DNA of 64,000 nt from a virus (IMGVR_UViG_3300015360_000023:1-64000); one strand, 5' to 3'; counted from the first letter of the stretch, positions 1,062 through 38,887 are shown. Translations and numbers: made by a program. The notes: a model not told the origin generated them from the letters alone.

Positions 1062-1520
1062 ATGTCAAAATTTCAGCTAGATTACTCAGGTTTAGAAAAC
1101 AAAGTCTACAAGAAGGCTTATAGACTTAATGACGTCAAAGACCAACTTGAGACAGTTGCTTTTGATATTGTTCGATTCAAAGATAACGATAAGGGCGCCG
1201 ATCTATGGCAGGTTCAAAGTTCTGATGATGGTGATTACATCGTCTCCTTGTACCAGCCAGATGAAGACGTAAAGGTTGCGGCCCTATGGGAAGTCTTAGT
1301 TAGTAAGACTGCCGGCGATTTACAAATTTCTTATAAGGGCGACCCTTTGGTCAGAGTGAGCGCCAGCCAGATGGGTATCCCTCGTACTGAGCTTAGTCAG
1401 GTTGAATCATATCTTCCTGCAAAATTAGCTTCTAATAAGAAGTTAGTTAAGGCTTTGCTAAATGAGTTACCAGAATCAGCTAAAAAAGAGGTATTAAGTA
1501 AATACCCGGAATTAGTCTAA
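1062..1520 (+). CDS. Hypothetical head-module protein
   Basis: 152 aa ORF, first gene after the terminator. Has VYKKAY near the N-terminus. Confidence 0.75.
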   Translation: MSKFQLDYSGLENKVYKKAYRLNDVKDQLETVAFDIVRFKDNDKGADLWQVQSSDDGDYIVSLYQPDEDVKVAALWEVLVSKTAGDLQISYKGDPLVRVSASQMGIPRTELSQVESYLPAKLASNKKLVKALLNELPESAKKEVLSKYPELV

Positions 1521-1540
1521 CATTACGGAATAGGTGTTTA

Positions 1541-3154
1541 ATGAGCCTCGATAAAATACAAAAATCAGTAGCATCTCTGGTAAAGACAATCCAGAACAAT
1601 GAAAAAGTTGCTACTCCAATTCTAGCCGCAAAGTTAGCTAAAGCAGTTGACGCCTACCCAGGTGATCAAACAATTGGCGCTATGTCTAGAGTTATCAGTA
1701 AGATGGCAGCCAATAACACTACGTTTATTACTAAAGCAGACCTAAAGTCTCTTTATACTAAGCTTCATTCCCGTAATACAAAGTTCGCTGAACTTTTCTC
1801 GGATGAACTTGGCGTAGTTGATAGTTTACCATCTCCTCATCTTTATGAGAGAGATGAAGCAACTAAAGATGTCAATCCTTTCCAAGTTGGTGATGCTGTT
1901 CTAGCAAATGCTCTTAGTAGCGTTTTCGATAAGCACGCTCCTCTTAAAATGTACTCGCAAGAGTTAGCCAACAAAGCATTAGCCTCAGTGGCTACTTCTT
2001 TGGATGCATGGAATCTTAAGCCAACGGCCTTAGCCGTGGATGATGGCAACGATAAGTTCCTAGTTATCAAGGCTGACTATGAGACTCCAAAGGGCATTAC
2101 TAGCCTTTATATCCCAGTTGAAACCACAAACAAGAAGGTTATTGAAGCTTCTGTATTCATGGGTAACTCTGGTCCACAAGAGTTAAATCACTCTTCCATT
2201 AAGTCCTACCTAACTACTCAGGCGGGTACCAAGTTAAGAATGAATGCCGCTGGCATTCTTTCCGTTTTAACTAAGGCTGCCTCTGAGAATAGAGAAATCA
2301 GCGACGCTGAGATTGCATTAACTAAGCTTACTGCTACTCGTCAAGGTAAATCTGAATTTTTTGCTGGCGGTATCGTTGGACAAAAGGTTGCAGAAGCATC
2401 TAGAAATGATGTTGAGCTTCCAAAGTATGATGAATTTGTTTCTTTCGAGAAGCAATTTACTTCTGCTTATGGTCAAGCTTCATTCCAATTTGGTGCTGAC
2501 AAAGTTAAGGTTGCAAGAGAACATATCTCCAGAGAATTATCTGGCTATGGTCACAAGAACCCGCAAGTTACTGTTGCAAAGACTGATGAACAAACCATTT
2601 TCTATAATGTCGCACTTGATGCTGGTAGAGTTGGATTTACTGTTCCAGTTAAGATCTCCAATGGCAAAGTTGTTAAGCCAAGCTTAATGCTAGCTAATGG
2701 GGCTGTTTCTTCTTTCAGTCAACAAGGCGTTAACGAATTGTATGTTAATAACGCAAGCGACTTCAAGGCCGCCGCAGCAGCTTCTCCTCAATTTGGATTG
2801 AAGCCAAGCGATGTTCTAAATAACTTGAGAGCAGCTCTAGGCGAGGGTAACCACGCTAAGGCAGAGGACGCTTTGAACGTTCTTGCAAACTCAGGAGACA
2901 CGAAGGCTTACGCAACTGGTTTCCAGATGTATTTGGGTGGTCTAGCTCAAAAGAAGGAAGCACATGCGCACACTCCTCAATGCTCTCATATGATGAAGAC
3001 CTCTACTAGTGAACACCCAGTTTGCGCTCAAACCGGACTACCAGTTCACAGAATTTATCAAGATAAGGAAGGCAATTGCCGTCCTCTTTATAGAAGAGGT
3101 ATGGATGAGACTTATGAGGGAGCCGTTTTCAATAACTCTAAGATCTTCGGGTGA
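1541..3154 (+). CDS. Hypothetical head-module protein with possible C-terminal Cys/His metal site
   Basis: 537 aa ORF with AGGTG SD. C-terminal CSH...HPVC...C cluster. Confidence 0.75.
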   Translation: MSLDKIQKSVASLVKTIQNNEKVATPILAAKLAKAVDAYPGDQTIGAMSRVISKMAANNTTFITKADLKSLYTKLHSRNTKFAELFSDELGVVDSLPSPHLYERDEATKDVNPFQVGDAVLANALSSVFDKHAPLKMYSQELANKALASVATSLDAWNLKPTALAVDDGNDKFLVIKADYETPKGITSLYIPVETTNKKVIEASVFMGNSGPQELNHSSIKSYLTTQAGTKLRMNAAGILSVLTKAASENREISDAEIALTKLTATRQGKSEFFAGGIVGQKVAEASRNDVELPKYDEFVSFEKQFTSAYGQASFQFGADKVKVAREHISRELSGYGHKNPQVTVAKTDEQTIFYNVALDAGRVGFTVPVKISNGKVVKPSLMLANGAVSSFSQQGVNELYVNNASDFKAAAAASPQFGLKPSDVLNNLRAALGEGNHAKAEDALNVLANSGDTKAYATGFQMYLGGLAQKKEAHAHTPQCSHMMKTSTSEHPVCAQTGLPVHRIYQDKEGNCRPLYRRGMDETYEGAVFNNSKIFG

Positions 3155-3157
3155 TCA

Positions 3158-4288
3158 ATGAGATTATTTAGATTGGCTGATTTACTAGCGACGAAGTACA
3201 AAACTGCCGCCGCTACAGATGCAGAGAAGAACGAAGCTGATATTCGTCGATCTGTTTTGGATCTTTGGAACTTATCTAACAATAAGACTTACGATATCTT
3301 GCGCGTAATTGGTGATGCCGTCCTCAAGGATGCTCCTGGTTCCGAAAGAGAGAGAAGCGCAAAAAGAGGTCACGCCTTTGTAATTAAAGTGCTTAGTGTA
3401 ATTGACCAACTTAAAATTGGTTTGAATACAATCCCATTAGATGAAATTGAATCTAGCCTAAAAGCAGTAATCAATCTTATTGAAGAAGAATCTCAAGATG
3501 GCGGAAGAAACACCGTTGACTTTCCAGATTTAACTGATTTTATTACTTTGATGAATAAGAACAATAGAAATCTTAATCAATCAGATAAAAGACATGTTGA
3601 TACTCAGTATGGTAAAATTAGAACTGTATTGACTAGAATTCATAGTCTTGCTGACGCCATCGTTACTAAGCTGCAAAAAGCTAGAGGCGAACCAATGGCC
3701 GAGAAAAATTACAGACATCACCAAAGAGGTAGATTAGTCCCAAGACGTTCTCCTCTATATAAAGGTGATATCGTTGATTTTTTGAGACAATATGGTCCTC
3801 AATATGGATTAAATAGCACTGATGCTTGGTTACAGGCATTTGAAAATGATCCTCCATTCAAGGAGCAAATTACTACGGTAGTTAATGCTTTGAATAGAGC
3901 GAAGACTCCACGTGATGAAGCTCTTGTTAAAATGCAGATTGCTGAAATCATGAGGGCTCATGAGCTAAGAAAAAGAACCAACGAGCCAGCTTTTGAAGCT
4001 AATGAAGATCAGTTCAAGCAAATGGGCAGGCCGCTTTACGTTTCTCCAGAATTAAAGCAAGAGAAAATGCAACAGCAACAAATGCAGCAAGATACCCAAC
4101 AAGAAGAGTGGGAGAAGCTACAAATGGCTGTTAGACAAAGAGATGAGGCACACGCCCGCCGTCAACTTGAAGAGCAATCCGAACAAGCAAAACGAGACGA
4201 AGAGCAAAGAAAAATCGACGAAGAAGAGAGCATGCATAGCAAGTATAGTAGTTCTCGCCTTGAGAAAATTTTAAAGAGGTACAAATGA
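3158..4288 (+). CDS. Hypothetical helical/coiled-coil protein, putative internal head protein
   Basis: 376 aa. N-terminal RLADLLATKYKTAA. Q/E/R-rich C-terminal coil. Confidence 0.7.
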   Translation: MRLFRLADLLATKYKTAAATDAEKNEADIRRSVLDLWNLSNNKTYDILRVIGDAVLKDAPGSERERSAKRGHAFVIKVLSVIDQLKIGLNTIPLDEIESSLKAVINLIEEESQDGGRNTVDFPDLTDFITLMNKNNRNLNQSDKRHVDTQYGKIRTVLTRIHSLADAIVTKLQKARGEPMAEKNYRHHQRGRLVPRRSPLYKGDIVDFLRQYGPQYGLNSTDAWLQAFENDPPFKEQITTVVNALNRAKTPRDEALVKMQIAEIMRAHELRKRTNEPAFEANEDQFKQMGRPLYVSPELKQEKMQQQQMQQDTQQEEWEKLQMAVRQRDEAHARRQLEEQSEQAKRDEEQRKIDEEESMHSKYSSSRLEKILKRYK

Positions 4289-7621: not shown

Positions 7622-9079
7622 ATGAAATTACGAGAACTACTTCAACAAATGCAAGCTGTGCAAAAAGAAATGAAGACCTCTCCGGCCTTCATTTGCGGAG
7701 GCACGCCTAGAGATCGATATCTCCAGCAAATTGAAAAGATCTCGGACGTTGATATTACAACTGGTGATAAGAGTATTCAACTGCTTTCTCAAGAGCTAAG
7801 TGCCGCTCTTGCTAAACAGTATAATATCGTTACCAAAACTTTCGATGATGGTCACAGCGCCCTTCATATTGGTAAGTTCAAAATGGATTTTTCATCCAAT
7901 TTTAACGTTGAGAATGTAGACGCAATTCTTGCAAAGATGGGCTTCAAAAACATTACTGAGATGAAGAAAGAAATGTTTAGTAGAGACTTTACTTGTAATG
8001 CCTTATTACTTTCTTTAGACTTAAGAATCCTACTAGATCCAACTGATAGGGCCCTTAAAGACATTAAAGAAAAGAAGATTAGAACTTGTTTATCTCCGGA
8101 ACTTACTCTTACCTCAAATAGAAATAGAGTAATTAGATCCGTTTATTTGGCATCCAAATTAGGATTTGATATTGATGAATCTATTATTGAATTTGTTAAA
8201 AGAAATCCTGGTAGCGTTAAAATTTCTACACCAACTTCATTAACTGAAAAACTTAATCAAGCTTTTTCAATGGATGGAGATAGAGCTGCCCATAACATTA
8301 CTAAGATGGGGCTTTGGGAAGAGATTCCTATTACTAATGTGGTTCAACCTTATTATTTGAAGAAGGGCCAGTTGGCATCTAAAAAAGCTTACTTTCAAGG
8401 TGGTGGCGGAGTTAACGAGCCAACACCAAAGAAGAAAAAATATAAGTCCGACACCGCTATTGTGGTTCAACCAAGATTCGAGGAGCCTCTTTATCGTAAC
8501 TACGATTTATACGATACTCCAGGCAAGCATAGCCCAGGGGCCGGTTGGCACTCCATGCAAAAGTATAAAAGCGTTGAGGAATTTCTAAAGGCAAAAAGGA
8601 AGGAACTAAAGGACAAGTACAAGGCCGATGACTCTTGGATTGAGGATTCTGGTAAAATTACCAAGAACAATCCAATGAAGGCTCGTGCCGAGTTACTTTC
8701 AAAAATAATTAAAATTGGAATCGATTTTCCAATTGACGATCAAATTGAGTCTACTATTGACCATGATGGTGATTTATCTAATCATTCTTTAGAGATGGGT
8801 ATGGCTATGCCGTTACCTCTAAATGATTCTGAGGGAAAGCCTCCGTCAGAATTGGACTTTGGCCATTTAGAAAATGGCGAGCCAATGAAAGCTGATGAAG
8901 ATTTAATCGATTTAATAACCGAGAAGTATTTGGCTCATGAAGCTAAAACTGAACAAAATGGATTACCAGATGGCTTTAATCATTCCGAAGAGGAAGACAT
9001 TGAACCTACTCAAATGAATCCAGAATATGGTACTTTAGGTCCGGAAAGTACTATGTATGAAGATAAATGGAATATTTAA
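7622..9079 (+). CDS. Divergent class II (CCA/poly(A) polymerase family) nucleotidyltransferase fused to an unstructured C-terminal tail
   Basis: ICGGTPRD...DVD (motif A) and FSRDFTCNA (motifs B/C). The motif D position reads SNRNR rather than EDxxR. The tail starts KKAYFQGGGGVNEPTP. Confidence 0.85.
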   Translation: MKLRELLQQMQAVQKEMKTSPAFICGGTPRDRYLQQIEKISDVDITTGDKSIQLLSQELSAALAKQYNIVTKTFDDGHSALHIGKFKMDFSSNFNVENVDAILAKMGFKNITEMKKEMFSRDFTCNALLLSLDLRILLDPTDRALKDIKEKKIRTCLSPELTLTSNRNRVIRSVYLASKLGFDIDESIIEFVKRNPGSVKISTPTSLTEKLNQAFSMDGDRAAHNITKMGLWEEIPITNVVQPYYLKKGQLASKKAYFQGGGGVNEPTPKKKKYKSDTAIVVQPRFEEPLYRNYDLYDTPGKHSPGAGWHSMQKYKSVEEFLKAKRKELKDKYKADDSWIEDSGKITKNNPMKARAELLSKIIKIGIDFPIDDQIESTIDHDGDLSNHSLEMGMAMPLPLNDSEGKPPSELDFGHLENGEPMKADEDLIDLITEKYLAHEAKTEQNGLPDGFNHSEEEDIEPTQMNPEYGTLGPESTMYEDKWNI

Positions 9080-9142: not shown

Positions 9143-10084
9143 ATGTCACTACAATCAACAGCACAAGAATTAATCGTGGTAGATCCTGCTCAGGATTTTC
9201 CAATGGGTGATGCAGGAATGCAATTGGTTCCATTGGAAGTCGAAGACCCACATCCCGAACACCCTGCAACTGTTGAGTCTTTTGAACCTCTTGAGGTTGG
9301 TGAGCACGATCATGGCCAGCCAGAAGAAATTGAAATTGTTATGGAGTTACCGGGCGCCCCACCAGGCACCAAGGACCCAGAGCCAATTTTAGAAGTTCAT
9401 GAAGATGAGCCTAAGGAAGATAAGGGCGAGGCCCAAGACGAAGACCCAGCCAAGGCTGCAAAGAATGAAAAATGGGATTGGTCAAAGCGTGGTCCAACCG
9501 GATTCATTGCTTGGGTCAAAGAGCGTTGTGATGATGTTCCAAAGCACTCCGGTTACGACACCGCAGGTCTTGAGAGAGCTGTTGCCTACCTAGAGAGATT
9601 AGATAATGAAGTTTCTAAGGCCATGAGAATGGACTTGGATGGTGAACTAGATGCCAACCAAATTGAGAAGACTAGAGCTATCATCGATAATGGTATTGAG
9701 CGTTTGCACGACCGTCTTGATAAAGTTAAGAGCACCAAGAAGAAGAGCCGCAAGAAGAAGGGCTACGAATTGAATGAAGGTTTCCAAAAGGAAGCTCAAA
9801 AAATTACTGGTGTTAGTGGTGTTCTTGTAACCGTTCCTCTATTGATTTCAAGAATCGCAAGAGTCTGTGTTAACGGAATGGTTTCCGCAGGACATGATAT
9901 CGAAGATTTGTATGAGAGACAAGTTAAGTTCTACAAGCTTAATGACCGTGAACAAGCTGAAGTTATGCAGCTACTAGCTGACATGGGTTACTCCGTTCGT
10001 CAAGATAGAGGCTTCATGCCAGATGAGCAATTAGAAGTTTCTGATACTAATGGTATGGATTGGGCCGCGAACTACAAAGGATAA
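9143..10084 (+). CDS. Hypothetical head-module protein (acidic disordered N-terminus, helical core)
   Basis: Start after GAGGT at ATG 9143. Contains FQKEAQ. Confidence 0.7.
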   Translation: MSLQSTAQELIVVDPAQDFPMGDAGMQLVPLEVEDPHPEHPATVESFEPLEVGEHDHGQPEEIEIVMELPGAPPGTKDPEPILEVHEDEPKEDKGEAQDEDPAKAAKNEKWDWSKRGPTGFIAWVKERCDDVPKHSGYDTAGLERAVAYLERLDNEVSKAMRMDLDGELDANQIEKTRAIIDNGIERLHDRLDKVKSTKKKSRKKKGYELNEGFQKEAQKITGVSGVLVTVPLLISRIARVCVNGMVSAGHDIEDLYERQVKFYKLNDREQAEVMQLLADMGYSVRQDRGFMPDEQLEVSDTNGMDWAANYKG

Positions 10085-10086: not shown

Positions 10087-10740
10087 ATGTCAAAGTACAA
10101 CAGACATTCATCGGTTGTGTCAAGACAATCCGATTCGCCAATTGATGAAGATAGCTGGCTTCACAGATTCGAAAAGAGTCTAATGAAGGATGCTGTCCAA
10201 ACCAAGAAACAAGACTCTTCATTGTTTGAACAGATTAATACCATCATGAATGGAAAATCAAAATTCCCTTCTGTTGACGCTGCTGTTCAGGATATGAAAG
10301 AAAGAAGCGGCCTAACCGCTTATATTGAAAAGATCAATAAATCTTCCGAGGGAAACCTTCCAACTTCTAAGAAAATTGCCTCTGATAATCAGCAAGCAAT
10401 TGACAAGAAAGTTGAAATGACACCAATTGTTTTAACTAAACAGCCTCAGATCAAAAAAACTATTGAAAATTACATAAGGGACACTAAAGGCAATTTGCCA
10501 GTGCCAGCCATCATTGATAAGATTCGTTCTATCCATTCAAAAGATGTAACCGATTCTAAAGATTGGGACGATGATAAGCTTATCATTTTGGTAAGTAGAC
10601 TTAATCTATCAGCTAAGAAAGATAATCCTGGAACATTTCAGGACTACGGTAATTTAGGTTCTCGTGATACTGGTTCTGAAGCTGATATTGATCCATCAAA
10701 CACTGATGCTTTCTTTGCTTTAACTCCCGTTAAGCAATAA
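10087..10740 (+). CDS. Hypothetical head-module protein
   Basis: Start after GGATAATC at ATG 10087. Contains SKKIAS. Confidence 0.7.
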   Translation: MSKYNRHSSVVSRQSDSPIDEDSWLHRFEKSLMKDAVQTKKQDSSLFEQINTIMNGKSKFPSVDAAVQDMKERSGLTAYIEKINKSSEGNLPTSKKIASDNQQAIDKKVEMTPIVLTKQPQIKKTIENYIRDTKGNLPVPAIIDKIRSIHSKDVTDSKDWDDDKLIILVSRLNLSAKKDNPGTFQDYGNLGSRDTGSEADIDPSNTDAFFALTPVKQ

Positions 10741-11436: not shown

Positions 11437-13335
11437 ATGAGTAATATTAATTTAGAATCAAAAGAATTATTTCACAAATTACGTAAACAGCTATTAATGC
11501 TTGATCCCGTGATGTTTGTGGAGACCTATCTTACATTAGATGGCAAACCATTCAGACTAAGGGGCAACGGGTATAAACCTTTTTCAGAGGTATATCGTTA
11601 TATCGGTGTCAAAGCTTTAGAACCGAATTCAAAGCCGCTAATCATCGTCAAGGGACGTCAGGTCGGCGCTACTACGATGGCCAGTGCTCTTGAGATGTAT
11701 TTCATGGGCTGCGGACTCTTTGGTACTGGCGAGAAGCCACCGATGAGAGTTATCCACGCTTTCCCTCAATTGGAATTAGCTGCCGCTTATTCTAAAACCA
11801 AACTTAACCAAATTATCTCTACGGCTATGCCGGTAGAAACTGGCGAAGTTAAAAAAGCAGGCGCCAAGCCAAAGTCTCACATGCAGGCTCTGCTAGATCA
11901 ATCTACTGCTACAAATGACTCATTGCATTTCAAACAGTTCAGTGGCGGAAACCATTTGTGGGTTGAGTCTGTTGGACTTGACGGCGACCGCATCATGGGT
12001 CGTACCGCTGATATCCTTTTCTTTGATGAGGTTCAGAAAACGACTAGCATGGCTATCGGAAACTCTCTTAAGGTTTTAACTACCTCCAAGTATGGTAGAC
12101 CATCTAAGGGTGTTCAAGTTTACTTTGGAACTCCAAGACGTAAAGGTTCTGACTTCCATAAAATGTGGCAGTCCTCATCTCAGCAATTTTACTATTTGGG
12201 ATGCGAGAATTGTGAGAAGCATTTCCCTCTTTACACTCCCGGCTCTGATGAGTGGAAGTCAATTTGGGTTTACGGAATGATTGTTAAGTGTCCACATTGT
12301 GCACATGAACAAAACAAACTAGACGCTGCTGAACGTGGCAAATGGATTTCCTCTAAAGACCCTAACGACGAAGATTGTTTAATGGTTGGATTTCATCTTA
12401 ACCAGCTTTACATGCCTATGTTTACGCGTGAAGATATCGATGCTGAAATGCCGGGCAAGCATCCAATTAACACTGAACGTGTTTACATGAATGAAGTTTT
12501 AGGAGAATTCTTCCAAGGAGACTCTAGCCCTATTACTCCGGAAGAAATTAAAGACCAATGTGCTGATATTGGTCGTAAGTTCTCTGCTCGTATTGCGCCA
12601 GTCATCAATAAGGCAAGCCCTCAGATTGTTGTATTAGGTATCGACTATGGAGCTAGAGCTGATTTAGAGCAATTAGCTAATCCAGAAAAGATAAGAGTTA
12701 CAGGCCAGTCTTATAGTACGGCAGTTGTATTATCGGCTAAAGGGCCTAATCTGTTAAGTATTGAATTTGCAACTAAGTTCAAACGTAATGATATGGAAAG
12801 TAAAAAGGGTATCATTGATCAGCTTATGAGACAGTATAGCGTTCAATTGGCCGTTGGAGACATTGGATATTCAAACGACTTTTCAGCTATGTTACATAAT
12901 ATTTATGGAGATAAGTATTTAGTTTCTCGTGCTCATAATAAATTGAATGGACATATTAAATTTTCAGATGATGCATTTCCAAAAGAAATAGTTTTTGAAA
13001 GAGATTTTTATATTGGCGAACTTTATGAGCAATTAAAAAAGGGTCAAATTAAATTTCCATTTGGAGATTATGAGAAGATTGCTTGGTTAATTGATCATTG
13101 TTGTAGTATGGAAATTAAACCCACCGTATCAAGAATGGGCGGGGATCCTACTATTCATTATGTTAAAGGAAGCACTCCTAACGACGGATTTATGGCTTTA
13201 TTGAATGCATACCTGGCATATAAGTTCATCATTACGAGAGGGTTTACTAGTCATAATCCCTTAATTCAGCAGGCAAATTTCAAAGATCGCCATAAACCAT
13301 TGGTAATTGCTGGGTTTATACCTCGTAAGTTTTAA
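11437..13335 (+). CDS. terL: Terminase large subunit (lambda gpA-like, with Zn finger)
   Basis: Walker A-like IVKGRQVGATT, Walker B ILFFDEVQ, CENC...CPHC Zn finger and RNase H-like nuclease VVLGIDYG. Confidence 0.92.
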   Translation: MSNINLESKELFHKLRKQLLMLDPVMFVETYLTLDGKPFRLRGNGYKPFSEVYRYIGVKALEPNSKPLIIVKGRQVGATTMASALEMYFMGCGLFGTGEKPPMRVIHAFPQLELAAAYSKTKLNQIISTAMPVETGEVKKAGAKPKSHMQALLDQSTATNDSLHFKQFSGGNHLWVESVGLDGDRIMGRTADILFFDEVQKTTSMAIGNSLKVLTTSKYGRPSKGVQVYFGTPRRKGSDFHKMWQSSSQQFYYLGCENCEKHFPLYTPGSDEWKSIWVYGMIVKCPHCAHEQNKLDAAERGKWISSKDPNDEDCLMVGFHLNQLYMPMFTREDIDAEMPGKHPINTERVYMNEVLGEFFQGDSSPITPEEIKDQCADIGRKFSARIAPVINKASPQIVVLGIDYGARADLEQLANPEKIRVTGQSYSTAVVLSAKGPNLLSIEFATKFKRNDMESKKGIIDQLMRQYSVQLAVGDIGYSNDFSAMLHNIYGDKYLVSRAHNKLNGHIKFSDDAFPKEIVFERDFYIGELYEQLKKGQIKFPFGDYEKIAWLIDHCCSMEIKPTVSRMGGDPTIHYVKGSTPNDGFMALLNAYLAYKFIITRGFTSHNPLIQQANFKDRHKPLVIAGFIPRKF

Positions 13336-25109: not shown

Positions 25110-25562
25110 ATGTTTAAAAAAGCTGATTTTGAAGACGAAATTTATCGTTCAATGGAAAAACAACTTGTTTCAAATCAAGTTGAAGATAAGCATGGATTTA
25201 AAAGAATTGCAAAGGCTGCCGAGTATTTAGAGGCGGCTGCTGAGATTTTTGATCAAGCCGGCATGACCCGTGAAGCCGAAGAAACTATTAGTGTTCTTCA
25301 TAGCTTAGCTATGGAGAATTTTTCTATTACTGATTTAGCCGGATTAGAAGATAAAGATCTTCATAATATTTTAGAGATGTCTACACCTAGTCAATTGATG
25401 CAACTATATAATAAAGTTTCAAATGTAGTTAAAGGCGAAGCCTCTCTTTCTGACACACTTAAAGAATCACTAAAAGAAAAAGATCTAAGTGATCCGGAAG
25501 TAAGAAGTGGGCTTATTAGTAAACTTAAAAGTGCACTTAAACTAGCTAAATTTTTTGCCTAA
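25110..25562 (+). CDS. Putative internal head protein, paralogue of 25570
   Basis: MFKKADFEDE...AAEYLEAAAEIFDQAGM resembles MIKKSLFEDE...AADYLNAAVEIFEEAGM. Confidence 0.7.
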   Translation: MFKKADFEDEIYRSMEKQLVSNQVEDKHGFKRIAKAAEYLEAAAEIFDQAGMTREAEETISVLHSLAMENFSITDLAGLEDKDLHNILEMSTPSQLMQLYNKVSNVVKGEASLSDTLKESLKEKDLSDPEVRSGLISKLKSALKLAKFFA

Positions 25563-28015: not shown

Positions 28016-29212
28016 ATGACTTTTAAGCACGTAAAATTTGAAGATTCCGCAATAATGCGTTCCCTTGAGAAAGTAGCAAGAGAAAAGGGTCTTATTAAAG
28101 AAGAAGATCTTATTAAGAAAGCTTCCAAGAGCATTGACTTATCACCAACCCCCGTATTGCTTGTTAACCTACTCAAGCTAGCTAATGGTTTGCGTGATAA
28201 AGGTTATGATGATGCTGCTGCCGAATTAGAGAACAAGGCTATTGCTTACAAGCAAGCCCAGTCTCTTTATGAGACTTCCAAAGAAAAGGGTGAAGATCTT
28301 ATTGATGCCGCTCATCCAAAGGGAAGTCACAAACTTGAAGGCGTTGAAGGCGATGCACTTTTCGAGACCATTCTTGATCAACATTTGGCAGACTTAGAGG
28401 TTGTTGAAAAGAAACCAACCGGCAAGCTAGCCTCTTCTAGAGACATTCTAAAAGCTGTTAGAATTGTTCTAGCAGGTACAGATGAAGAAAATGAAAATGT
28501 TGCACGCGGACAATTTCTTTCCATCGTTTCTGATTTAACTAATTTAGTTGCTAGAGTTATGAGAAATGAGGATTTGTCTGATTGGACTTATCACTCTCCA
28601 ATGAATTTTGGTAACCTTAGAGAAGATGAAGAGGCAGGCACGGGCGTAGCTACCGGGACCACTAAGGGTCACATGGAAGTTCTTACTGGTAATTTGAATG
28701 AACTATCTAAGAAAGGTCCTTCTCAAGAAACCATTAGAGAGATTCAAAAAAATATTAATACGCTAACTTCTCTTATTAGAGATGCTGATCATATTAATCC
28801 TGTTGCCAGAGGAAAATATACATCTGACGCTAGAACTATTTACTCTAGAACCCCAAAGGTATTAGAGGCCCTTCGTGGTGAGGGTGCTGCGGTAGCTCCA
28901 GTTGCTCCAGTTACTATTCCAACAGTAAATGTTACTAGTGGGCCATTAGGAAAAATGTTTGGTCAAATTACTGCGTTAAAAAGCAAACTTAATCTTTGGA
29001 AGTCTTTCAGATCTATTTCTAAAAACCGTGAAGCTATGAATTGGATTAACGAAGAAATTAAATCACTTGATGATATTGATCAGAGATACGATAAAGTGCC
29101 AGAAGATCAAGAAGCCGCTGCGGCCCCCCAAATGCAACGAGAATTAAATGAAGAAGTCGAAGGCATTAATGAATTTGAAGGTACTTGGATTAAACCTGCT
29201 GGCAACGCTTAA
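28016..29212 (+). CDS. Putative internal head/ejection protein, paralogue of 33023
   Basis: SLEKVAREKGLI...LY...DLIDAAHP matches SFVKIAQEKGMI...LY...NIMEAAHP. Confidence 0.7.
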   Translation: MTFKHVKFEDSAIMRSLEKVAREKGLIKEEDLIKKASKSIDLSPTPVLLVNLLKLANGLRDKGYDDAAAELENKAIAYKQAQSLYETSKEKGEDLIDAAHPKGSHKLEGVEGDALFETILDQHLADLEVVEKKPTGKLASSRDILKAVRIVLAGTDEENENVARGQFLSIVSDLTNLVARVMRNEDLSDWTYHSPMNFGNLREDEEAGTGVATGTTKGHMEVLTGNLNELSKKGPSQETIREIQKNINTLTSLIRDADHINPVARGKYTSDARTIYSRTPKVLEALRGEGAAVAPVAPVTIPTVNVTSGPLGKMFGQITALKSKLNLWKSFRSISKNREAMNWINEEIKSLDDIDQRYDKVPEDQEAAAAPQMQRELNEEVEGINEFEGTWIKPAGNA

Positions 29213-29222: not shown

Positions 29223-30437
29223 ATGTCAAAGAAAAACCTAAGAGAGCTAGTAGAAGAAATTCAAAAGTACGCAAAGAAGCCACCTCCACCCCCAGCAGGT
29301 TACAAGGTAGAAGCTCCTGCGCCTACTGCCGCTCCAGTTGCAGGTAATGCACCAGCCGCTCGTTCGGGCGCACGCCCTGTTCCAAAACCAGGTCAACCAG
29401 CAGCAGCGACACATTCAAATGTGTCTACTGAAATACAGAAGATGCAATTCGCTATGCAGAGAGTGGCAAAAACAGTTTCTTCAACTATTAATTACGATGC
29501 TTTAACAAAAGCATTACAAGGTAATCCTGGAGTCGATAAAAGACAAGTTGAAAAGTCTATTGGTAGAGACGCATTCAGTACTATTTTAATTAACAGAATG
29601 CGTGGCGCAAAAACTAAAGGTGTAGAGTTTGATCCAAATCAAAGTAAAACAAAAATGCAAGATAAAAACCCTTCTGATCTGAAGAGTTTGTTTGTAGTAT
29701 TGGATTCTCTTAGAAGAATTGGCGCAGGTAAAGACGAAGGTAATCCTGATGGAGCTTGGGGACCTAGAACTAATAATGGCCTTAAAAATATTGCTTCAGT
29801 TGCTGAGGCGCTTAATAAATTAGGCACAGAATTAGCTATGCAGTCACAAGCATTTGATCCATCGCATATGGAACAATTAAATTCTCTTATTCCAGAATCA
29901 GATAAAGAAATTGATCAGAATGAAAAAGTTAAAAGAGCACCAGTAATTGCCAAACTTTTGGCTGGAGTTCAAGCCTTAGTATTAGATTTTAAAGATCAAA
30001 TATTGGCTAATCCAAACTACGCTGTTTTCATTGATGATCAAAAATCATTATTTGATGTTGGTGCCGATAAAGAAAAGGTGTTTCAGCCTGAAAACGAAGG
30101 CGAGAAACTAATTTATGATTCACTTAGAAATGAAAAAAGTAAAAGTAGATTTATTAGAGATACAAATGGGACAATAGTTCCGGTTGCATCTGTTAAGATT
30201 CCAGCAGAATATACTGGTGGTAAAGAGTTACCACCATTTAATATTACTGGTGCCGACTTAGTTGATAAAGAATCATTCGATCATTGGGCAAATAGTAATT
30301 CTGTTTTAATGAATCTTATGAAGAGCAATCCAACAACCTGGAATAATGTTGTTTCATTTATTCTATCTGATACGCAGAAGCAAATACAACAAAAACTACA
30401 AGGCCCAGCGACTACCCCGCTTCAAGAGACAAGGTAA
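29223..30437 (+). CDS. Putative ejection protein with a peptidoglycan-binding-like motif
   Basis: PDGAWGPRTNNGL resembles the PG_binding_1 DGxxGPxT signature. IQKYAK followed by a Pro/Ala linker. Confidence 0.55.
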   Translation: MSKKNLRELVEEIQKYAKKPPPPPAGYKVEAPAPTAAPVAGNAPAARSGARPVPKPGQPAAATHSNVSTEIQKMQFAMQRVAKTVSSTINYDALTKALQGNPGVDKRQVEKSIGRDAFSTILINRMRGAKTKGVEFDPNQSKTKMQDKNPSDLKSLFVVLDSLRRIGAGKDEGNPDGAWGPRTNNGLKNIASVAEALNKLGTELAMQSQAFDPSHMEQLNSLIPESDKEIDQNEKVKRAPVIAKLLAGVQALVLDFKDQILANPNYAVFIDDQKSLFDVGADKEKVFQPENEGEKLIYDSLRNEKSKSRFIRDTNGTIVPVASVKIPAEYTGGKELPPFNITGADLVDKESFDHWANSNSVLMNLMKSNPTTWNNVVSFILSDTQKQIQQKLQGPATTPLQETR

Positions 30438-30441: not shown

Positions 30442-31893
30442 ATGAGTTTCATTTACGATGATGACAAATTAGTTCTTGATTTACTTAAGAGCGCCGTTGA
30501 ATTTGAATTAAAATTCAACAAGCGGGGCCAAGTTGCGCCTAATGCAAAAATCAATGCTGAATATCAAAACTATCTTAATCTATCAACTAAGTTAGTAGAA
30601 CAACTTAAAACTCAATATTTCCCACAGGAAAAAGATCCTAATGCCATTAAATCTGATGGCCAGACGGGACCTGTTGTTGCGGATATGAATACCCTTGGAA
30701 ATTTCTTTGACTATATTCTTAAAAATAATATCACTGTTGGTAATCAAAAAATTGTTTACGCAGAGGGAGAGAATCCCCCAAATAGAAACTGGTTACCAGT
30801 AGATGCTGAACAATCAAAATTACTTGTAGAAACTGTCGATCAAGAAGGCAATAGAAAAGCTTTGGTCGGAGCCTATCACGTAAACAAAGATTTGTTATCT
30901 AAGTATTTAGTTAAACTATCAGCTCAACTTAATCAAGAAAAAGACGAAGAGACTAAGAGATTTATGAGATCTATGTTAGCAGGTATTATGGAAAAAGTTA
31001 ATGCTGTTTTCCGTACTAAATTAACTCCAGATCATAAAGAAGTAGAAGAAGAGTTAAAAGATAATGTTGTCCTAGATAATGTCCCTAACCCGATCGTTTC
31101 TGGCGGAGCCGATCCTGCTAACCCTCTTCTTGTTAAAGATGTTAAATCTGTTCAGACATTAAATGCATGGATAGAAGACCATAAAATGACCCTTAAAGAT
31201 GCTAAGGGCCAAGTAATTAGTTATACTCAAAACTACGATAGATGCGCTTTCATCAATGCTCTTTATACTAGGGCTAGTACTATGTCTGACTCTGCTCGTC
31301 CAGAAACTCAGAAGGCAAAAGCATATTATGTAAAAATGATGACCCAAATTGCATCTCAAGCAAATTGTGCGCTTAAGGGCGGCGGAGCCAATCCAAATCA
31401 GACTGCTCAGCCTCAGAAGATTAGTGCTCAAGTTATGGCTCGTATTTTCTCAACGCTACCATTTATGGATGGCGCCATCGACTTTACCAGAATCACTACT
31501 TTCTTAAGTCTTGTTGAACCATTAATTCCTGCTACTTCAGGATCTTCTACTGAGGTTAAGGGCGGAATTACAGAGTTTAAAACCTTCCTAAAGCAACCTA
31601 ATGTAAATCAAGTTTCAATCAAAGTTAACACTGGACAGTTTGCACGTTTGTTAATAGAGCCAAATTCTGGTGGAAAAGTATTTGGAGCAATTGAAGCTTT
31701 AAATCAAGTAATTGATAATACTCGTTCTGTTCTTGATCAATTCAGCTCTGCCTATAAATCAAATTTCGGAGAAAATGAATTAAGACTTTTGGGAGATCAG
31801 ATTGGTGAATCACAAACTGATGACTCAATTTATAGAGAAAATGCAAACAACCTAGCTAATATAAAGGGCGCTGCCGTATCGAGGCCAATCTAA
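30442..31893 (+). CDS. Putative internal head/ejection protein
   Basis: Start reassigned to ATG 30442 (AAGGT). N-terminal LLKSAVEFELKFNKRGQ. Confidence 0.7.
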   Translation: MSFIYDDDKLVLDLLKSAVEFELKFNKRGQVAPNAKINAEYQNYLNLSTKLVEQLKTQYFPQEKDPNAIKSDGQTGPVVADMNTLGNFFDYILKNNITVGNQKIVYAEGENPPNRNWLPVDAEQSKLLVETVDQEGNRKALVGAYHVNKDLLSKYLVKLSAQLNQEKDEETKRFMRSMLAGIMEKVNAVFRTKLTPDHKEVEEELKDNVVLDNVPNPIVSGGADPANPLLVKDVKSVQTLNAWIEDHKMTLKDAKGQVISYTQNYDRCAFINALYTRASTMSDSARPETQKAKAYYVKMMTQIASQANCALKGGGANPNQTAQPQKISAQVMARIFSTLPFMDGAIDFTRITTFLSLVEPLIPATSGSSTEVKGGITEFKTFLKQPNVNQVSIKVNTGQFARLLIEPNSGGKVFGAIEALNQVIDNTRSVLDQFSSAYKSNFGENELRLLGDQIGESQTDDSIYRENANNLANIKGAAVSRPI

Positions 31894-32978
31894 TGAGATC
31901 TACCAGTAGAGAAATCAGTTTTTATGTTGATACCATGATAGTTGAAACACTATTAACGGATTCTCATTTGGTAAAATCTGCTCAAGCAGGCGGCTTCATT
32001 TCAGGATTAATTGGTAAAGTTAAAGACTATTTCGGTGCACATTTTAACTCTGAAAATAAGGCTGGAAGTGTTATTAACATGTTGGCACCTGGAGTTATCT
32101 CAATTGGTTTGGGTGCTATGGGATTACCTTGGCTTGGTGCTATGTTGGCTTTTGCTGCAAGTATTTTTAATATCAATGTCAGCGAGATAATAGAAAGCAT
32201 TTGGAATGGAATCAAAGGTATTGTTAGTTCTGGTAAGCAAACAAGTTCAGAACACATAGATAGTTTAGTTGATTCTTCAATTTCTTCTAACATTAAACCA
32301 GCTACTCAAGATGAAGCTGATAAAGCAAAAACCTCTTTAGAAAGTAGAAACTCTGCTCAACTATTAAGAGATGCCAAATTGCTTAAAATGGCAATGATTG
32401 CTTATGAAGAGTCTCCTGAAAATTTTGTTAAACAGGCAGGTCTTCTTGATTGGTTTTCTGGTAAGAAAGCCGGTGTAGGAAGTTTACTTGGCATAGTTCT
32501 AAAATGGGTCTTTAAGATTGTCTTAGCTTCTGCTGGTTTCATGGTTGCCGGAGATATTGTTAACAAAGTTTTAGATCGACCAAATGCATTAGATGGAACT
32601 TTGAAAGACGGCAAGCCAACAACCGAAACTTCTGTTGCCATGCCTGTTAATATTTCTAAGCAAACTAGATTTAAAGTCAACCCTGGCGCTCAAGATATTT
32701 CTCATAAGGGAAGCAGTTGGATTGAAAATGTCCAGAACTCTGAAGGCGGCATTTCCAATATGCTTATGAGCTGGGCCAAAGAAATTTATCAAGGATTAAA
32801 TGGTTTAGACTCCATTATCCAAAATACGGCAGGTTTTCAAGCCGCTGTTGAAGCCATCTCTTGGCAGAACCATTCCTCTGCTGGCGGACCTATAGTTTAT
32901 ATTCCGCCTATGTTCACTTCTAAGAAGATGGTCGTCGACCATTTCATCGATGAAGTGGCCGAAAAAGCTCCTAAGTAA
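31893..32978 (+). CDS. Putative membrane-inserting ejection protein
   Basis: Hydrophobic segments GVISIGLGAMGLPWLGAMLAFAASIF and VGSLLGIVLKWVFKIVLASAGFMVAG lie downstream of LVKSAQ and FVKQAG. Confidence 0.6.
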   Translation: MRSTSREISFYVDTMIVETLLTDSHLVKSAQAGGFISGLIGKVKDYFGAHFNSENKAGSVINMLAPGVISIGLGAMGLPWLGAMLAFAASIFNINVSEIIESIWNGIKGIVSSGKQTSSEHIDSLVDSSISSNIKPATQDEADKAKTSLESRNSAQLLRDAKLLKMAMIAYEESPENFVKQAGLLDWFSGKKAGVGSLLGIVLKWVFKIVLASAGFMVAGDIVNKVLDRPNALDGTLKDGKPTTETSVAMPVNISKQTRFKVNPGAQDISHKGSSWIENVQNSEGGISNMLMSWAKEIYQGLNGLDSIIQNTAGFQAAVEAISWQNHSSAGGPIVYIPPMFTSKKMVVDHFIDEVAEKAPK

Positions 32979-33022: not shown

Positions 33023-34270
33023 ATGAAAAGATCTGAAATATTCGATTCTTTTGTCAAAATAGCCCAAGAAAAGGGAATGATCTCTAATGACTCTAGCGAG
33101 GCAAAGAAGAAGATCGAGCAAACTGGTAGAGCCGGTTCTGATGATATTTCTACTATTGAAGCTTTGTATGGTGTTAAACCTGATTCTGCCAAAGGCATGG
33201 ATTATAAGAATAACATTATGGAAGCAGCTCACCCTAATTCTGTTGTCGTCTCCCCATCTTACGATAAGTTAAATGGTTTAGTTGAGAACAACATTGAGCG
33301 TCAAAACATTTTATTGAACATCGTTAACAAACCAGTTAACGGATTATCTACTCAACACAAGTATGCTGAGACTCAGCTTCTATTAACTCTTGTCAGAATT
33401 GGCGATGAGCTTGATAAAAGAGATGAAAACGAATTACGTGCCCTTTCTGATGTATGCCTTGAGCAAACCAGTAAGAAATCTTTTACCAAGACTGCCCAGG
33501 ATCCAGTTACTTTAACGATCGCGGGTATTGCGGCTATTTTAGGTGGCGTTTATTTAAAGAATCACATGAGATTCATTAGTGATGGACTAGAATTAGATCA
33601 CGCTAAATTGACTGGTGAAATTGATGATATGCTTAATTCCAATTCAGATTGGGGCGTTGGATATCAATATAAGCAAGAATTCACCCAAACTATGCAACAA
33701 TTTAGAATGAAGCTAGATACTTTCTATAAAGTATATCAATCAGTTGTTCCAGTTATCAATGACATTGAAAAGCCAAGAGATAAGGCAGAACTTATTGCTA
33801 AATCTAAAGAACCAGATACTCAAACAGTTCAAAGGGCTATTGCCGCTTTTAGAACTGCGGCCGATAATTTAATTCCTGAAATCCAATCAATCATTAAGAA
33901 TTTTTCTAATGAAGGATTTAAGCAAAGACAAATTCAAGAAAAAGGTTTCTTATCAAACTTAGTTGACAGCACTCAAATTTTACATGGTGGCAAAGGATTA
34001 GTTGGTGATGACTTTGATGACGTCCGCCACGCTTTAGAAACATATCTATTAGATATGGGTAATCTAAAGAAGACCTTAGGTGATGTTGGCAGTGTTCAAC
34101 AAAAGATTACTAGTGATTTACAGGCTGCATCAGCTAAGAGTTCAGAACTATTTGGTGGTCCAGAAGCTGTTCTAAATCAAAAGAAGCCAGAAGAAGATCA
34201 AAGAACTGCTCTTCAAAAGGCAGAAGAAGAAGCCGTTAAACTAACTAAAAGTTTAGGATTTGGAAGTTAA
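33023..34270 (+). CDS. Putative ejection protein with one TM segment, paralogue of 28016
   Basis: FVKIAQ, QHKYAE and FTKTAQ, the last followed at once by VTLTIAGIAAILGGVYL. Confidence 0.65.
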   Translation: MKRSEIFDSFVKIAQEKGMISNDSSEAKKKIEQTGRAGSDDISTIEALYGVKPDSAKGMDYKNNIMEAAHPNSVVVSPSYDKLNGLVENNIERQNILLNIVNKPVNGLSTQHKYAETQLLLTLVRIGDELDKRDENELRALSDVCLEQTSKKSFTKTAQDPVTLTIAGIAAILGGVYLKNHMRFISDGLELDHAKLTGEIDDMLNSNSDWGVGYQYKQEFTQTMQQFRMKLDTFYKVYQSVVPVINDIEKPRDKAELIAKSKEPDTQTVQRAIAAFRTAADNLIPEIQSIIKNFSNEGFKQRQIQEKGFLSNLVDSTQILHGGKGLVGDDFDDVRHALETYLLDMGNLKKTLGDVGSVQQKITSDLQAASAKSSELFGGPEAVLNQKKPEEDQRTALQKAEEEAVKLTKSLGFGS

Positions 34271-35208: not shown

Positions 35209-36222
35209 ATGAATATGTTTTCCAACAAAGGCGAAATGAACGCCTCATCCCTTAAGGATGCTCTACAAACCTTAGTTAAGTATGCAGCCGTTCTTGAAGA
35301 GAACACTCCATCTAACATGGGTCTTGCAGGTCAAGCTTCTTTGAGTGACGACAAGCGCGATGAGCTTATCTCCCGCGCAATTATGACTCAAGACGGCAAG
35401 ATTGCTCTAGCTCAGGCTATGGCAAACCCAATCCGTAGAAACTTGGACTACCATGGTATTGCTCGTAGAGCACTTGTAGTCGATCCATTGCCACAGGGTG
35501 CAATGCCAACTTACGATAGAGATATCGACGTTGCCGCAGTTGTTATCTCCAGCAACGGTACTGGCCCAGAGTCCAGAGTATTCGGCGACAGAGTTGTCGT
35601 TCCAGAATTCGAAATCTACGCAAACCCAACTGTTAGAATCGCAGAAGTCAAGCGTCGTAGATTCAACGTTATTGACAGAGCAGTTCAAAAGGCTCGTCAA
35701 GAAATCATGGCACAAGAAGATGCAAACATCTTCGCAGCTTTGGATGCAGCATCCTCAGTTGAAAACACCCTAACCGACATTGCTGATGCAGGCCTTCTAA
35801 AGAGAGACCTTGTCGAAATCAAGCAACAGATCGACCGTTGGGACCTTGTTACTACCAAGTACTTCATGAACATCAATGAGTTCACCGATATCCTTAAGTG
35901 GGGATCTGGTGGCGGTCAAGGTGTTGGTGGTGGTGACTTCGATCCAGTAACTATGAGAGAAGTTCTACAAACTGGTCTTTACGCTCACATCTGGGGTACT
36001 GACATTATGGTATCTAAGATCGTTCCACCAGGAACCATCTACGGTGCAGCAGACCCAGAGTTCGTTGGTGTTATGCCAATTAGACAAGACATTGAAGTTC
36101 TACCAGCAGACGAGCCAAAGCAATTGAAGCTTGGATGGGTAGTTTCTGAAATCATCGGTATCGCTATCGTTAACCCACGTGGTTGCGCAGCCGGCCGTAA
36201 GTCAGTTGTCGTCGGAGCCTAA
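35209..36222 (+). CDS. Major capsid protein (HK97 fold)
   Basis: AGGAG SD before ATG 35209 gives about 337 aa. PEFEIYANPTV, IMAQEDANIFAAL and IGIAIVNPRG motifs. Strong expression codon bias, a terminator downstream and head-module context. Confidence 0.88.
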   Translation: MNMFSNKGEMNASSLKDALQTLVKYAAVLEENTPSNMGLAGQASLSDDKRDELISRAIMTQDGKIALAQAMANPIRRNLDYHGIARRALVVDPLPQGAMPTYDRDIDVAAVVISSNGTGPESRVFGDRVVVPEFEIYANPTVRIAEVKRRRFNVIDRAVQKARQEIMAQEDANIFAALDAASSVENTLTDIADAGLLKRDLVEIKQQIDRWDLVTTKYFMNINEFTDILKWGSGGGQGVGGGDFDPVTMREVLQTGLYAHIWGTDIMVSKIVPPGTIYGAADPEFVGVMPIRQDIEVLPADEPKQLKLGWVVSEIIGIAIVNPRGCAAGRKSVVVGA

Positions 36223-36244: not shown

Positions 36245-36285
36245 AAACGCCTTCAAGCGAAAGCTTGAGGGCGTTTCTATTTGTG
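36245..36285 (+). terminator. Rho-independent terminator after the MCP
   Basis: aaacgccttcaagc-GAAA-gcttgagggcgttt followed by ctatttgtg. Confidence 0.85.
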
Positions 36286-36288
36286 GTC

Positions 36289-36302
36289 AATAACTAAGCA
36301 TA
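36289..36302 (+). promoter_or_regulatory. ATA-N7-ATA motif
   Basis: AATA-actaagc-ATA, 6 nt before ATG 36309. Confidence 0.55.
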
Positions 36303-36308
36303 ATCATT

Positions 36309-38074: not shown

Positions 38075-38081
38075 AGCGCGC

Positions 38082-38109
38082 ATGATAAATCCTAAAAAAA
38101 TGATGTCAA
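38082..38109 (-). promoter_or_regulatory. Sigma70-type promoter for cca
   Basis: Minus strand reads TTGACA (38109-38104), a 16-nt spacer, then TATCAT (38087-38082). ATG begins at 38074. Confidence 0.65.
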
Positions 38110-38140
38110 CGGGGTCGTGATAATTATCCCGGCAGGTTGC

Positions 38141-38154
38141 AATAATCAGGTATA
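38141..38154 (+). promoter_or_regulatory. ATA-N7-ATA motif
   Basis: AATA-atcaggt-ATA upstream of 38183. Confidence 0.55.
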
Positions 38155-38182
38155 TTATTGATCCTATACTGGAAAGAGATGC

Positions 38183-38887
38183 ATGAAACTAGATAACTTT
38201 ACAGAATTGTACGAGCTTGTTAGTAGTGGAATAGAACATATTCCAGCTAGAAAACAAGCTATGCGTCTAAGAAAAGCAGGCCTAGAGTCTTTTGCTTCTG
38301 AGACAGGTTTCAAGAAATTAGCTTTCGATACTAGAAGAATTGATCAAGAAACTGAATATAATCCTCGTAGAGGTCTTCAGAACTATAGCCGTAGTGAAGC
38401 TTTTATTACTGAAGCTGTTAGTCAGAAGCTAGCAAATCTTTCTAAACTGCGCAATGTCTTAGAGGGACTACGCCACGATTTTGGTAAACAACATCAATGG
38501 CAGGACAGTAATGCGCGTGTTCTACTATCAACTCTTGATAAAGGTTTAAGAACTGGTATTGATGATGGTGATTATGCTACATCTCAACCGGCTCAAGGTA
38601 GCCTTAACTACATTGAAGAACTTCTTCATGTTAGATATAGGTTGGGGTTTGATGATCTTGTTAGATTGGGTGAAAATGATTTAAGAAGAGTTATTTTATC
38701 TAAGGACGAAGAGTTAACTGAGAGGGATGCGCATAAGACAACTATTACTAAAAGTGATGTTGCTTCTCAGACTTATGATACACTAATGGAAAAATTATTT
38801 GGTGGTGTTCGTGCAACCGCTGATAATCCAGAGGTTGAAAGAACAGTTACTATTACTATCAAAGACAAATTTGTTGCGGAGAAATAA
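38183..38887 (+). CDS. Hypothetical protein, possibly head-associated
   Basis: 234 aa. Contains FKKLAF. Confidence 0.7.
   Translation: MKLDNFTELYELVSSGIEHIPARKQAMRLRKAGLESFASETGFKKLAFDTRRIDQETEYNPRRGLQNYSRSEAFITEAVSQKLANLSKLRNVLEGLRHDFGKQHQWQDSNARVLLSTLDKGLRTGIDDGDYATSQPAQGSLNYIEELLHVRYRLGFDDLVRLGENDLRRVILSKDEELTERDAHKTTITKSDVASQTYDTLMEKLFGGVRATADNPEVERTVTITIKDKFVAEK

Follow-up and report, generated by a model that had tools for sequence, protein, structure and literature searches.

Why do so many head proteins of one virus carry the same short pattern of amino acids near their N-termini, and what might read it? The question is raised by a 64,000-nucleotide stretch of viral DNA (IMGVR_UViG_3300015360_000023:1-64000, called the window throughout), which is the first 64 kb of a single-contig, phage-G-like genome of 202,609 bp. 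The pattern is Phi-x-K-x-[A/G], where Phi is a hydrophobic residue and x is any residue. A sequence-only reading of the window had proposed that it is both a novel cleavage site for the head maturation protease and a tag for packaging proteins into the head. Sequence comparisons support Phi-x-K-x-[A/G] as a real, selected short linear motif that is specific to head-module proteins. It most likely serves an assemblin-fold protease-scaffold protein in processing or recognition, is centred on Lys and specific to the lineage, and is conserved across a very large clade of megaphages.

Enrichment and conservation of the motif

The gene model of the whole genome holds 227 genes, and the head region was defined as the 32 plus-strand proteins encoded from 1062 to 38887, which are named below by the start of their gene. 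In residues 1-30, the motif is found in 12 of the 32, compared to 3.0 ± 1.6 expected when residues are sampled from each protein's own composition (0 of 400 samplings reached 12). Local shuffles of residues 2-30, 2-40 or 2-60 lead to an expectation of 3.0-3.4 N-proximal carriers, and 0 of 2,000 reached 12. The remaining 193 proteins of the genome include 14 such carriers versus 12.6 expected, which is no excess. The positional clustering claimed for head proteins is therefore borne out, and the hexapeptides quoted in support of it were all found in the genes and at the positions named. Since the motif had been picked after seeing the data, all 1,600 gapped dipeptides with gaps of 0-3 were enumerated in an unbiased scan; K.A ranked first, occurring in 15 proteins compared to 5.2 expected (family-wise p ~0.013). 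The motif is found at a density of 0.4-1.0 per 100 residues up to 40 kb, and the fibre-rich region at 140-160 kb has 0.03, in line with the impression that it is sparse in fibre genes. An extended form, Phi-x-K-x-[AG]-Q, is present in nine copies in the head region versus 1.6 expected (0 of 300 shuffles). Close paralogy was rejected as the origin of the motif because the 25110/25570 pair is the only one among the carriers that BLAST detects as paralogues. A DNA-level motif was ruled out as well, as the codons at the motif positions vary freely, and the constraint therefore acts on the protein.

Conservation was examined in 160 metagenomic loci with 10-kb flanks, drawn from IMG/VR contigs, of which hundreds (up to 480 kb) were recovered by the major capsid protein (MCP) and hundreds by the portal. 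The nearest annotated relative is Bacillus phage G, with an MCP that is 53% identical and a protease, gp19, that is 34% identical. Most of the remaining head-module proteins have no PHROG or Pfam family, and Pfam scans of ten head proteins gave none. Identity between the head proteins and their orthologues is only 22-65%, which makes conservation of the motif informative. Across 66 motif occurrences in head families, identity exceeds the protein mean by 0.13, 0.21 and 0.17 at positions 0, 2 and 4 (Phi, K and A/G, respectively), while the excess at positions 1 and 3 and at all flanking positions is within ~0.05 of zero. The motif Lys is better conserved than the other 762 Lys residues (p=3.5e-7), and the motif A/G is better conserved than other A/G residues (p=2.9e-6). 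For the control patterns Phi.K.[ST], Phi.K.[DE], Phi.R.[AG] and Phi.E.[AG], the excess at the central residue ranges from -0.10 to +0.08. At 23 well-behaved sites, the invariant position is Lys in 0.94 of sequences and Arg in 0.01, with no Glu, and position 4 is Ala in 0.85, Gly in 0.07 and Ser in 0.03. The residue after the A/G is Gln in 30% of cases overall and Ser in 9%, and Gln reaches 85-100% in the 9143, portal, 15328, 30442 and protease-645 families. Fixed positions two apart with free residues between them, as seen in both the conservation profile and the per-site substitution table, are a hallmark of cleavage motifs.

The Phi, K and A/G positions are kept in many families, and several of the instances first listed are due to chance or are not conserved. 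KYKTAA (3158), for example, is not kept in its four orthologues. Protein 1062 has no orthologue among the 160 loci. In the 30442 protein, FNKRGQ is conserved and LLKSA is not. In the protease leader, LKKVAP reads L-K-x-[IV]-A-P in diverse homologues and is no true instance; the Pro after its Ala, once considered as a clue to the scissile bond, was dropped for that reason. Nor is the first position always hydrophobic, since KYKTAA, QHKYAQ and QYKFAS start with K or Q.

Copies of the motif can also be found outside these proteins. The extended form occurs ten times in the rest of the genome compared to 4.0 expected (p ~0.007). A small protein encoded outside the head module on the minus strand (59382-59771) has two N-proximal copies, ILKQA and FEKLAQ, and several of the giant proteins (673-2384 residues) encoded at genome positions 80212-107417 bear Phi-x-K-x-[AG]-Q sites. 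Between the portal and protease genes, a 403-residue protein (16695-17906) has an N-terminal lytic-transglycosylase-like domain, with PHROG matches to baseplate hub and lytic tail proteins, and carries zero copies.

The protease-scaffold fusion and the motif sites

The protein that ties the motif to a protease is a 1167-residue protease-scaffold fusion encoded at 20649-24152 on the plus strand, as are all sites described below. Its gene lies in the head module between those of the portal (13404-15263) and the HK97-fold MCP (35209-36222), the placement seen in the prohead-protease family. In the fusion, residues 1-44 form a leader and residues ~45-250 the catalytic domain; a C-terminal helix comes next, and then a scaffold-like region that is helical, acidic and rich in Pro and Ala and has 17 motif matches. 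PHROG 18299, "head maturation protease," matches it with an E value of 3e-12; there is no Pfam family at E<=0.01 and no meaningful PDB match by sequence or profile search. A megablast search with the gene against annotated phages gave no match, and relatives were found at the protein level only. Among 1.8 billion representatives, there are 1,581 relatives of the protease, 194 of them at E<1e-30, and nearly all are fusions of 1,100-1,600 residues in which the catalytic domain starts at residue 40-58. A homologue search restricted to 121-385 residues returned only fragments of this same family, without family names.

The catalytic domain lies at 20781-21398. In an alignment of 42 sequences down to 40% identity, H132 (in C-I-D-H-K) and S183 (in V-S-M-G) are invariant and are the putative catalytic residues; an E-L-S-I-V-x-x-G-A-D block is present as well. 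A Cys-rich insertion at 21225-21290 (residues 193-213), C193-x-x-C196 ... C207-x-H209 ... C215, has its C193, C196 and C207 invariant in the same 42 sequences, is also found in phage G gp19 and looks like a candidate zinc-binding element. An AF2 model made from this alignment has a mean pLDDT of 82.6, with a core above 90; an earlier model from a shallow alignment (>=66% identity) gave a pLDDT of 45 and was discarded. The top 38 rows of the VIA-align search with the model are exclusively herpesvirus proteases or T4 gp21, with varicella-zoster virus (VZV) protease at Z 11.4 (rmsd 2.8 Å, 118 residues aligned) and T4 gp21 at Z 10.4 (rmsd 3.1 Å, 128 aligned). The predicted fold is that of assemblin and T4 gp21 (clan SH).

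The motif flanks this domain and fills the scaffold part. Just ahead of the domain is F32-R-K-T-A36 (20742-20756), with the motif in 93% of orthologues; F-x-K-x-A is kept here in most of the 50%-identity representatives, and LVKTA stands there in phage G gp19. At the end of the C-terminal helix, before a hypervariable linker, is I262-K-K-L-A266 (21432-21446), with the motif in 78% of orthologues. Around it, identity falls from 0.85 over the 30 residues on the upstream side to 0.22 downstream, where the alignment has 57 inserted columns. Within the scaffold part, L645-V-K-S-A(-Q) (22581-22595) is followed by GAPPAEAAPPADAGAPP (in context, SLVKSAQ-GAPPAEAAPP), and the motif is kept in 100% and the Gln in 96% of orthologues. 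The same combination of [LIVM]-[FY]-K-x-A-Q and a Pro/Ala linker recurs across diverse representatives. Relative to shuffled counts in 136 diverse fusions, Phi.K.[AG] is enriched 2.16-fold and Phi.K.[AG]Q 8.6-fold, compared to 0.9-1.2-fold for spacing variants and 0.7-0.9-fold for Phi.K.[ST], Phi.K.[DE] and Phi.E.[AG]. The 20 residues downstream of the Phi.K.[AG]Q sites contain 16.8% Pro, compared to 4.3% in the background and 0.9% upstream. The Glu at P1 that is the hallmark of the T4, phiKZ and SPN3US motif is not seen here, as Phi.E.[AG] is neither enriched (0.87-fold) nor conserved.

Several other features of the fusion family deserve mention. A peptide, Y-[YF]-Q-G-[AG]-G-G-V-N-E-P-T-P-G-x-x-K-Y-P, occurs twice in the scaffold, at residues ~408-432 (21870-21940) and ~505-529 (22160-22230), and is shared with a CCA-type nucleotidyltransferase-like protein of the head operon (7622-9079, residues 246-277; 60-69% over 25-32 residues). 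In some relatives (P0203, P0204 and representatives of ~1500 residues such as P0015 and P0038), Hint/intein domains (PF01079, PF05203, PF14890) are present and the protease match is split by an insertion of ~430 residues, which suggests inteins inside the prohead protease domain.

In the other head proteins, two arrangements recur across families, which upholds the view that sites lie near N-termini and at junctions between domains and disordered segments. In one arrangement, shared with sites 262 and 645 of the protease, a conserved leader is followed by the site and then by an indel-rich or Pro/Ala-rich linker. The leader site of the 33023 protein, F10-V-K-I-A(-Q) (33050-33064), precedes an indel-rich linker and has the motif in 100% of 50 orthologues, the mean identity of which is 43%. 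The leader helix of the 29223 protein ends in I13-Q-K-Y-A (29259-29273), with KKPPPPP next and the motif in 76-80% of orthologues (mean identity of the protein, 23%). F25-N-K-R-G(-Q) of the 30442 protein (30514-30528) stands before a variable Ala/Pro-rich region (FNKRGQ-VAPN) with 51 inserted columns downstream; the motif is kept in 62-73% and the Gln in 85% of orthologues at a mean identity of 22%, and Gly dominates position 4. L21-V-K-I-A(-R) of the 18318 protein (18378-18392) is kept in 77%, with 38 inserted columns downstream. In the 24181 protein, Q30-Y-K-F-A(-S) (24268-24282), in which K, Y and A are each found in 100% of orthologues, separates a conserved leader from a variable acidic and Cys-rich stretch (identity 0.75 upstream, 0.33 downstream).

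In the other arrangement, a variable or acidic stretch is followed by the site and then by a conserved domain. F214-Q-K-E-A(-Q-K) of the 9143 protein (9782-9796), with the motif in 100% of orthologues and 0% identity at the first x, comes after a long, acidic, indel-rich N-terminal part (51 inserted columns upstream; downstream identity 0.78). An internal site of the 15328 protein, M162-I-K-E-A (15811-15825; motif in 93%), has a variable stretch upstream (identity 0.16) and a conserved domain downstream (0.51). The portal site, Q79-H-K-Y-A(-Q-V-V-S) (13638-13652), is in the variable N-terminal region ahead of the conserved core, with K in 100% and Q at +5 in 100%; the first position is mostly M, L, V or F in orthologues. 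F43-K-K-L-A of the 38183 protein (38309-38323) has the motif in 100%, with identities of 0.43 upstream and 0.84 downstream.

Additional sites are conserved in these and other proteins. The leader site of the 31893 protein, L26-V-K-S-A(-Q) (31968-31982), keeps both K and A/G in 100% and Phi in 92% of 40 orthologues with a mean identity of 40%, and its x positions are 20% and 8% identical. An internal site of the 33023 protein, F154-T-K-T-A(-Q) (33482-33496), has the motif in 94%, with x positions that are 4% and 20% identical. The 28016 protein has two sites, L17-E-K-V-A and L32-I-K-K-A (28064-28123), kept in 85% and 69-77% of orthologues, respectively, and the 10087 protein has L32-M-K-D-A (10180-10194), absent from the list in the earlier reading, with K in 100%, the motif in 76% and 0% identity at the first x. 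At the extreme N-terminus of the 15328 protein, M1-D-K-F-A(-Q) (15328-15342) is kept as M-x-K-x-A-Q in 93-97% of 60 orthologues (mean identity 34%). The 25110 protein begins with M1-F-K-K-A (25110-25124); in the N-terminal alignment, its orthologues carry a further copy, F-x-K-[LI]-A-[KQ], around residue 30, and R takes the place of this Lys in the window copy. In the MCP, L22-V-K-Y-A26 (35272-35286) lies within a 42-residue N-terminal extension. This extension is missing in the MCPs of phage G and Tunturi_5 and shared by those of PaBG and Rctr197k, which are without the motif. The homologous PaBG MCP is reported to lose ~20% of its mass on maturation, with N-terminal processing (PMC7412058). 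In L071, which has an orthologue of the 33023 protein, the leader is duplicated internally (RSDVFERFAEIMKEAY) and a copy of the motif is kept as I-M-K-E-A.

Cleavage, docking or structure

The motif is probably, at somewhat better than an even chance, the recognition motif, Phi-x-K-x-[A/G](-Q), of the lineage's prohead serine protease, the enzyme that forms the N-terminal domain of the 1167-residue fusion. That the motif flanks and fills the protease-scaffold protein makes a link to the maturation protease the best explanation, and that it clusters in proteins of the head, close to N-termini, within the scaffold and around the protease is another hallmark of a cleavage motif. The spacing, the strict Lys and small residue, the restriction to head proteins, the flanking and scaffold sites and the accessible junctions are features to be expected of a prohead-protease motif. 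In the prohead, the protease would free itself by cutting on either side of its catalytic domain, chop the scaffold part at its many sites and trim N-terminal leaders from the MCP, the portal and roughly twelve minor or internal proteins of the head. Cleavage at the motif, the position of the scissile bond and any role in targeting are what we infer from the pattern. Going by the cut at K103/S104 in HK97 and the A-X-E logic of SPN3US, the cut favoured is one after the Lys, Phi(P3)-x-K(P1)|x-[A/G](P2'), by analogy with F-N-K|S of HK97 and the P3-x-P1 rule of the clan. Alternatively, the sequence may be cut after the A/G, so that the motif would span P5-P1. A complex prediction that paired protease residues 44-275 with residues 1-40 of the 33023 protein, its leader, scored 0.01 against a mark of 0.32 and counts neither way.

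Several observations weigh against cleavage. MDKFAQ (15328), MIKKAY (19718) and MFKKAD (25110) begin at Met1, where a cut would remove just 3-5 residues; they cannot mark a leader of useful length and look more like binding motifs than propeptide junctions. Several of the leaders that precede a site are more conserved than a discarded propeptide requires. In the scaffold, Phi.Q.[AG] (1.8-fold) and Phi.R.[AG] (1.5-fold) are also mildly enriched, which means that helical periodicity accounts for part of the scaffold signal. Conserved matches in folded cores (portal 326, MCP 228 and residue 545 of the large terminase, TerL, encoded at 11437-13335) are probably structural. In phage G, the N-proximal enrichment is weak (5 of 27 proteins vs 2.5 expected, p ~0.09) and the MCP has no leader; the overall motif density of its head module is raised (38 vs 22.9 ± 4.4). 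A phage G multi-omics paper and a jumbo-capsid paper contain no cleavage-site data. A comparison of the boundaries of phage G gp19, gp20 and gp21 with the motif sites of the fusion gave no result, as the protease domain is the one part detectably homologous by BLAST and family HMMs. Of the earlier proposal of a novel maturation-protease site, what survives is a selected, head-specific motif that flanks and fills the protease-scaffold protein; its novelty was overstated, and several of its instances fail.

One could consider that the motif is never cut and instead lets proteins dock in a pocket, offered by the scaffold, the protease or the inner face of the capsid, and so be recruited into the prohead, in a manner that would resemble the N-terminal packaging signal of phage P1 DarB. 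This reading, which is unlikely but deserves to be taken seriously, agrees with the Met1 motifs and with the conservation of motif-bearing leaders as units, such as F-D-S-F-V-K-I-A-Q-E-K-G-[LM]-I (33023) and S-L-E-K-V-A-R-E-K-G-L-I (28016), and a capsid localisation signal in the N-terminal 30 residues of P1 DarB is documented (PMC9024508). It leaves unexplained the many scaffold sites, the sites on either side of the catalytic domain and the internal sites between a variable stretch and a domain (9143@214, 15328@162). Also, the i, i+2, i+4 pattern, which fits an extended substrate strand, together with the free x positions and the equivalence of Ala and Gly, is more typical of a protease substrate than of a helix interface. 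Docking and cleavage are compatible and not mutually exclusive; capsid-targeting sequences of T4 end in a gp21 site.

Two further readings do without either function. The motif could simply arise from the structure of head proteins made of helices and coiled coils, with Phi at a, Lys at c and a small residue at e, and no specific recognition. Helices are predicted for many carriers, a designed coiled coil of LKKIAWQ repeats weakly matches the protease leader, and there is the mild enrichment of Phi.Q.[AG] and Phi.R.[AG] in the scaffold. We regard it as quite improbable all the same, as local-composition shuffles do not reproduce the enrichment, the spacing variants are flat, Phi.E.[AG] is not enriched and Lys is almost never replaced by Arg. 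A small residue, Ala or Gly, at position 4 is not what helix propensity would lead one to expect, and Gly is tolerated there and even dominant in the 30442 family. In several families (31893, 30442, 9143), the second x is hydrophilic, and the sites are at the ends of segments by Pro-rich linkers rather than spread through helices. Head proteins might instead be marked by covalent chemistry on the invariant Lys, which would be cross-linked through an isopeptide bond or modified, with an enzyme recognising Phi and A/G. HK97-type capsids use Lys-based cross-links, the Lys here is strict and not replaced by Arg, and Gln is frequent three residues after it. Against this stand the many conserved sites without Gln, the junction and linker setting and the protease-flanking sites, which it leaves unexplained, and family scans of the head module in which no transglutaminase-like or other modifying enzyme was seen; we would give it hardly any credence.

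Processing by the prohead protease, the preferred reading, leaves room for a second role. Short N-terminal leaders are conserved in the 33023, 28016, 24181, 31893, 29223 and 18318 proteins, and since several leaders upstream of the site are conserved, the packaging tag of the earlier reading is plausible; several conserved leaders would probably also help to draw the proteins that bear them into the prohead. A dual "address plus scissors" code across phage-G-like megaphages, in which the conserved leader delivers a protein to the prohead for cutting at the motif by an assemblin-fold protease specific for Lys, is a tentative idea that we lean against while thinking it a fair way from fanciful. 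If it were true, one could read off from the motif by itself which head proteins are packaged and processed, some 15 of them here. Cuts that follow Lys would mimic those of trypsin, so this processing would have escaped standard virion proteomics, and phage G data sets would need to be re-analysed with non-tryptic or N-terminal-labelling methods. The clade of phage-G-like megaphages is very large and mostly uncultured (194 protease representatives at the threshold given above and hundreds of IMG/VR contigs of 200-480 kb), and most of its head proteins are without a known family. A validated motif would set the boundaries of mature proteins for cryo-EM model building, flag head-internal or ejected cargo among uncharacterised proteins and give the assemblin-fold clan, with its members directed at Glu (T4, phiKZ) and at Ala (herpesvirus), a specificity for Lys as well.

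Neighbouring genes and known systems

Some genes around the head module have features of their own. Two GIY-YIG homing-endonuclease-like genes (125-799 and 27198-27971) are 39% identical to each other, and the second splits the head module. The C-terminal 75 residues of the MCP (262-336) resemble residues 6-80 of a small open reading frame (ORF) that starts at 109358, ~74 kb away (52%), and portal residues 324-371 resemble residues 69-113 of a 125-residue ORF at 137889 (52%). Both ORFs look like duplicated pieces of core head genes.

Among known systems, HK97 is instructive since its gp5 is cut at K103/S104 (PMC10275583), at a site that reads T-F-N-K|S-L-G (sequence from NC_002167). The novelty claimed for a Lys-directed specificity was overstated for this reason. 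In both systems, the prohead serine protease gene is between those of the portal and the MCP. In HK97, the cut follows a Lys that has a hydrophobic residue at P3 and lies where the N-arm begins, which compares with the Phi-x-K motif and putative cut here, and the Delta-domain has five further Phi-x-K triplets, including L-T-K-S-G. In the gp4 protease, the signature blocks follow one another as they do here, with [DN]-H-K first, S-[VM]-G next and E-[IL]-S-[VI]-x-x-x-[PG]-A-[ND] last (N-H-K and S-V-G in gp4), yet it has no significant sequence or profile similarity to the fusion protease (E 0.09-0.18). Unlike in HK97, the protease here is fused to a scaffold of ~900 residues, the MCP leader is ~25-42 residues rather than a 103-residue scaffolding domain, the motif needs a small residue two after the Lys, often with Gln, and many proteins besides the MCP carry it.

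The processing systems of T4 gp21, phiKZ gp175 and SPN3US gp245 resemble the one proposed here in their P3-x-P1 type of motif logic, with A-X-E at P3-P1, auto-cleavage and N-terminal propeptides described for gp245 (PMC10052503), and the model of the window protease shares the fold of gp21. In these systems, as would be the case here, the protease processes itself, many head and ejection proteins have N-terminal propeptides, and scaffold-like proteins hold multiple sites. Their P1 is Glu, whereas here an invariant Lys is followed by x and a small residue, and their cleavage was mapped by experiment, whereas here we infer it. Like the leaders here, the capsid-targeting sequences of T4 internal proteins and P1 DarB are short and N-terminal; theirs are on proteins packed inside the head, and they have no sequence similarity to those of the window. 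Herpesvirus assemblin, represented by the VZV protease, is the best structural match, and in both cases the protease is fused to a scaffold. The release and maturation sites of assemblin have a hydrophobic P3 and a small P1 (Ala) and are cut between Ala and Ser. In the megaphage motif, by contrast, the residue after the A/G is variable, and the main constraint falls on the Lys.

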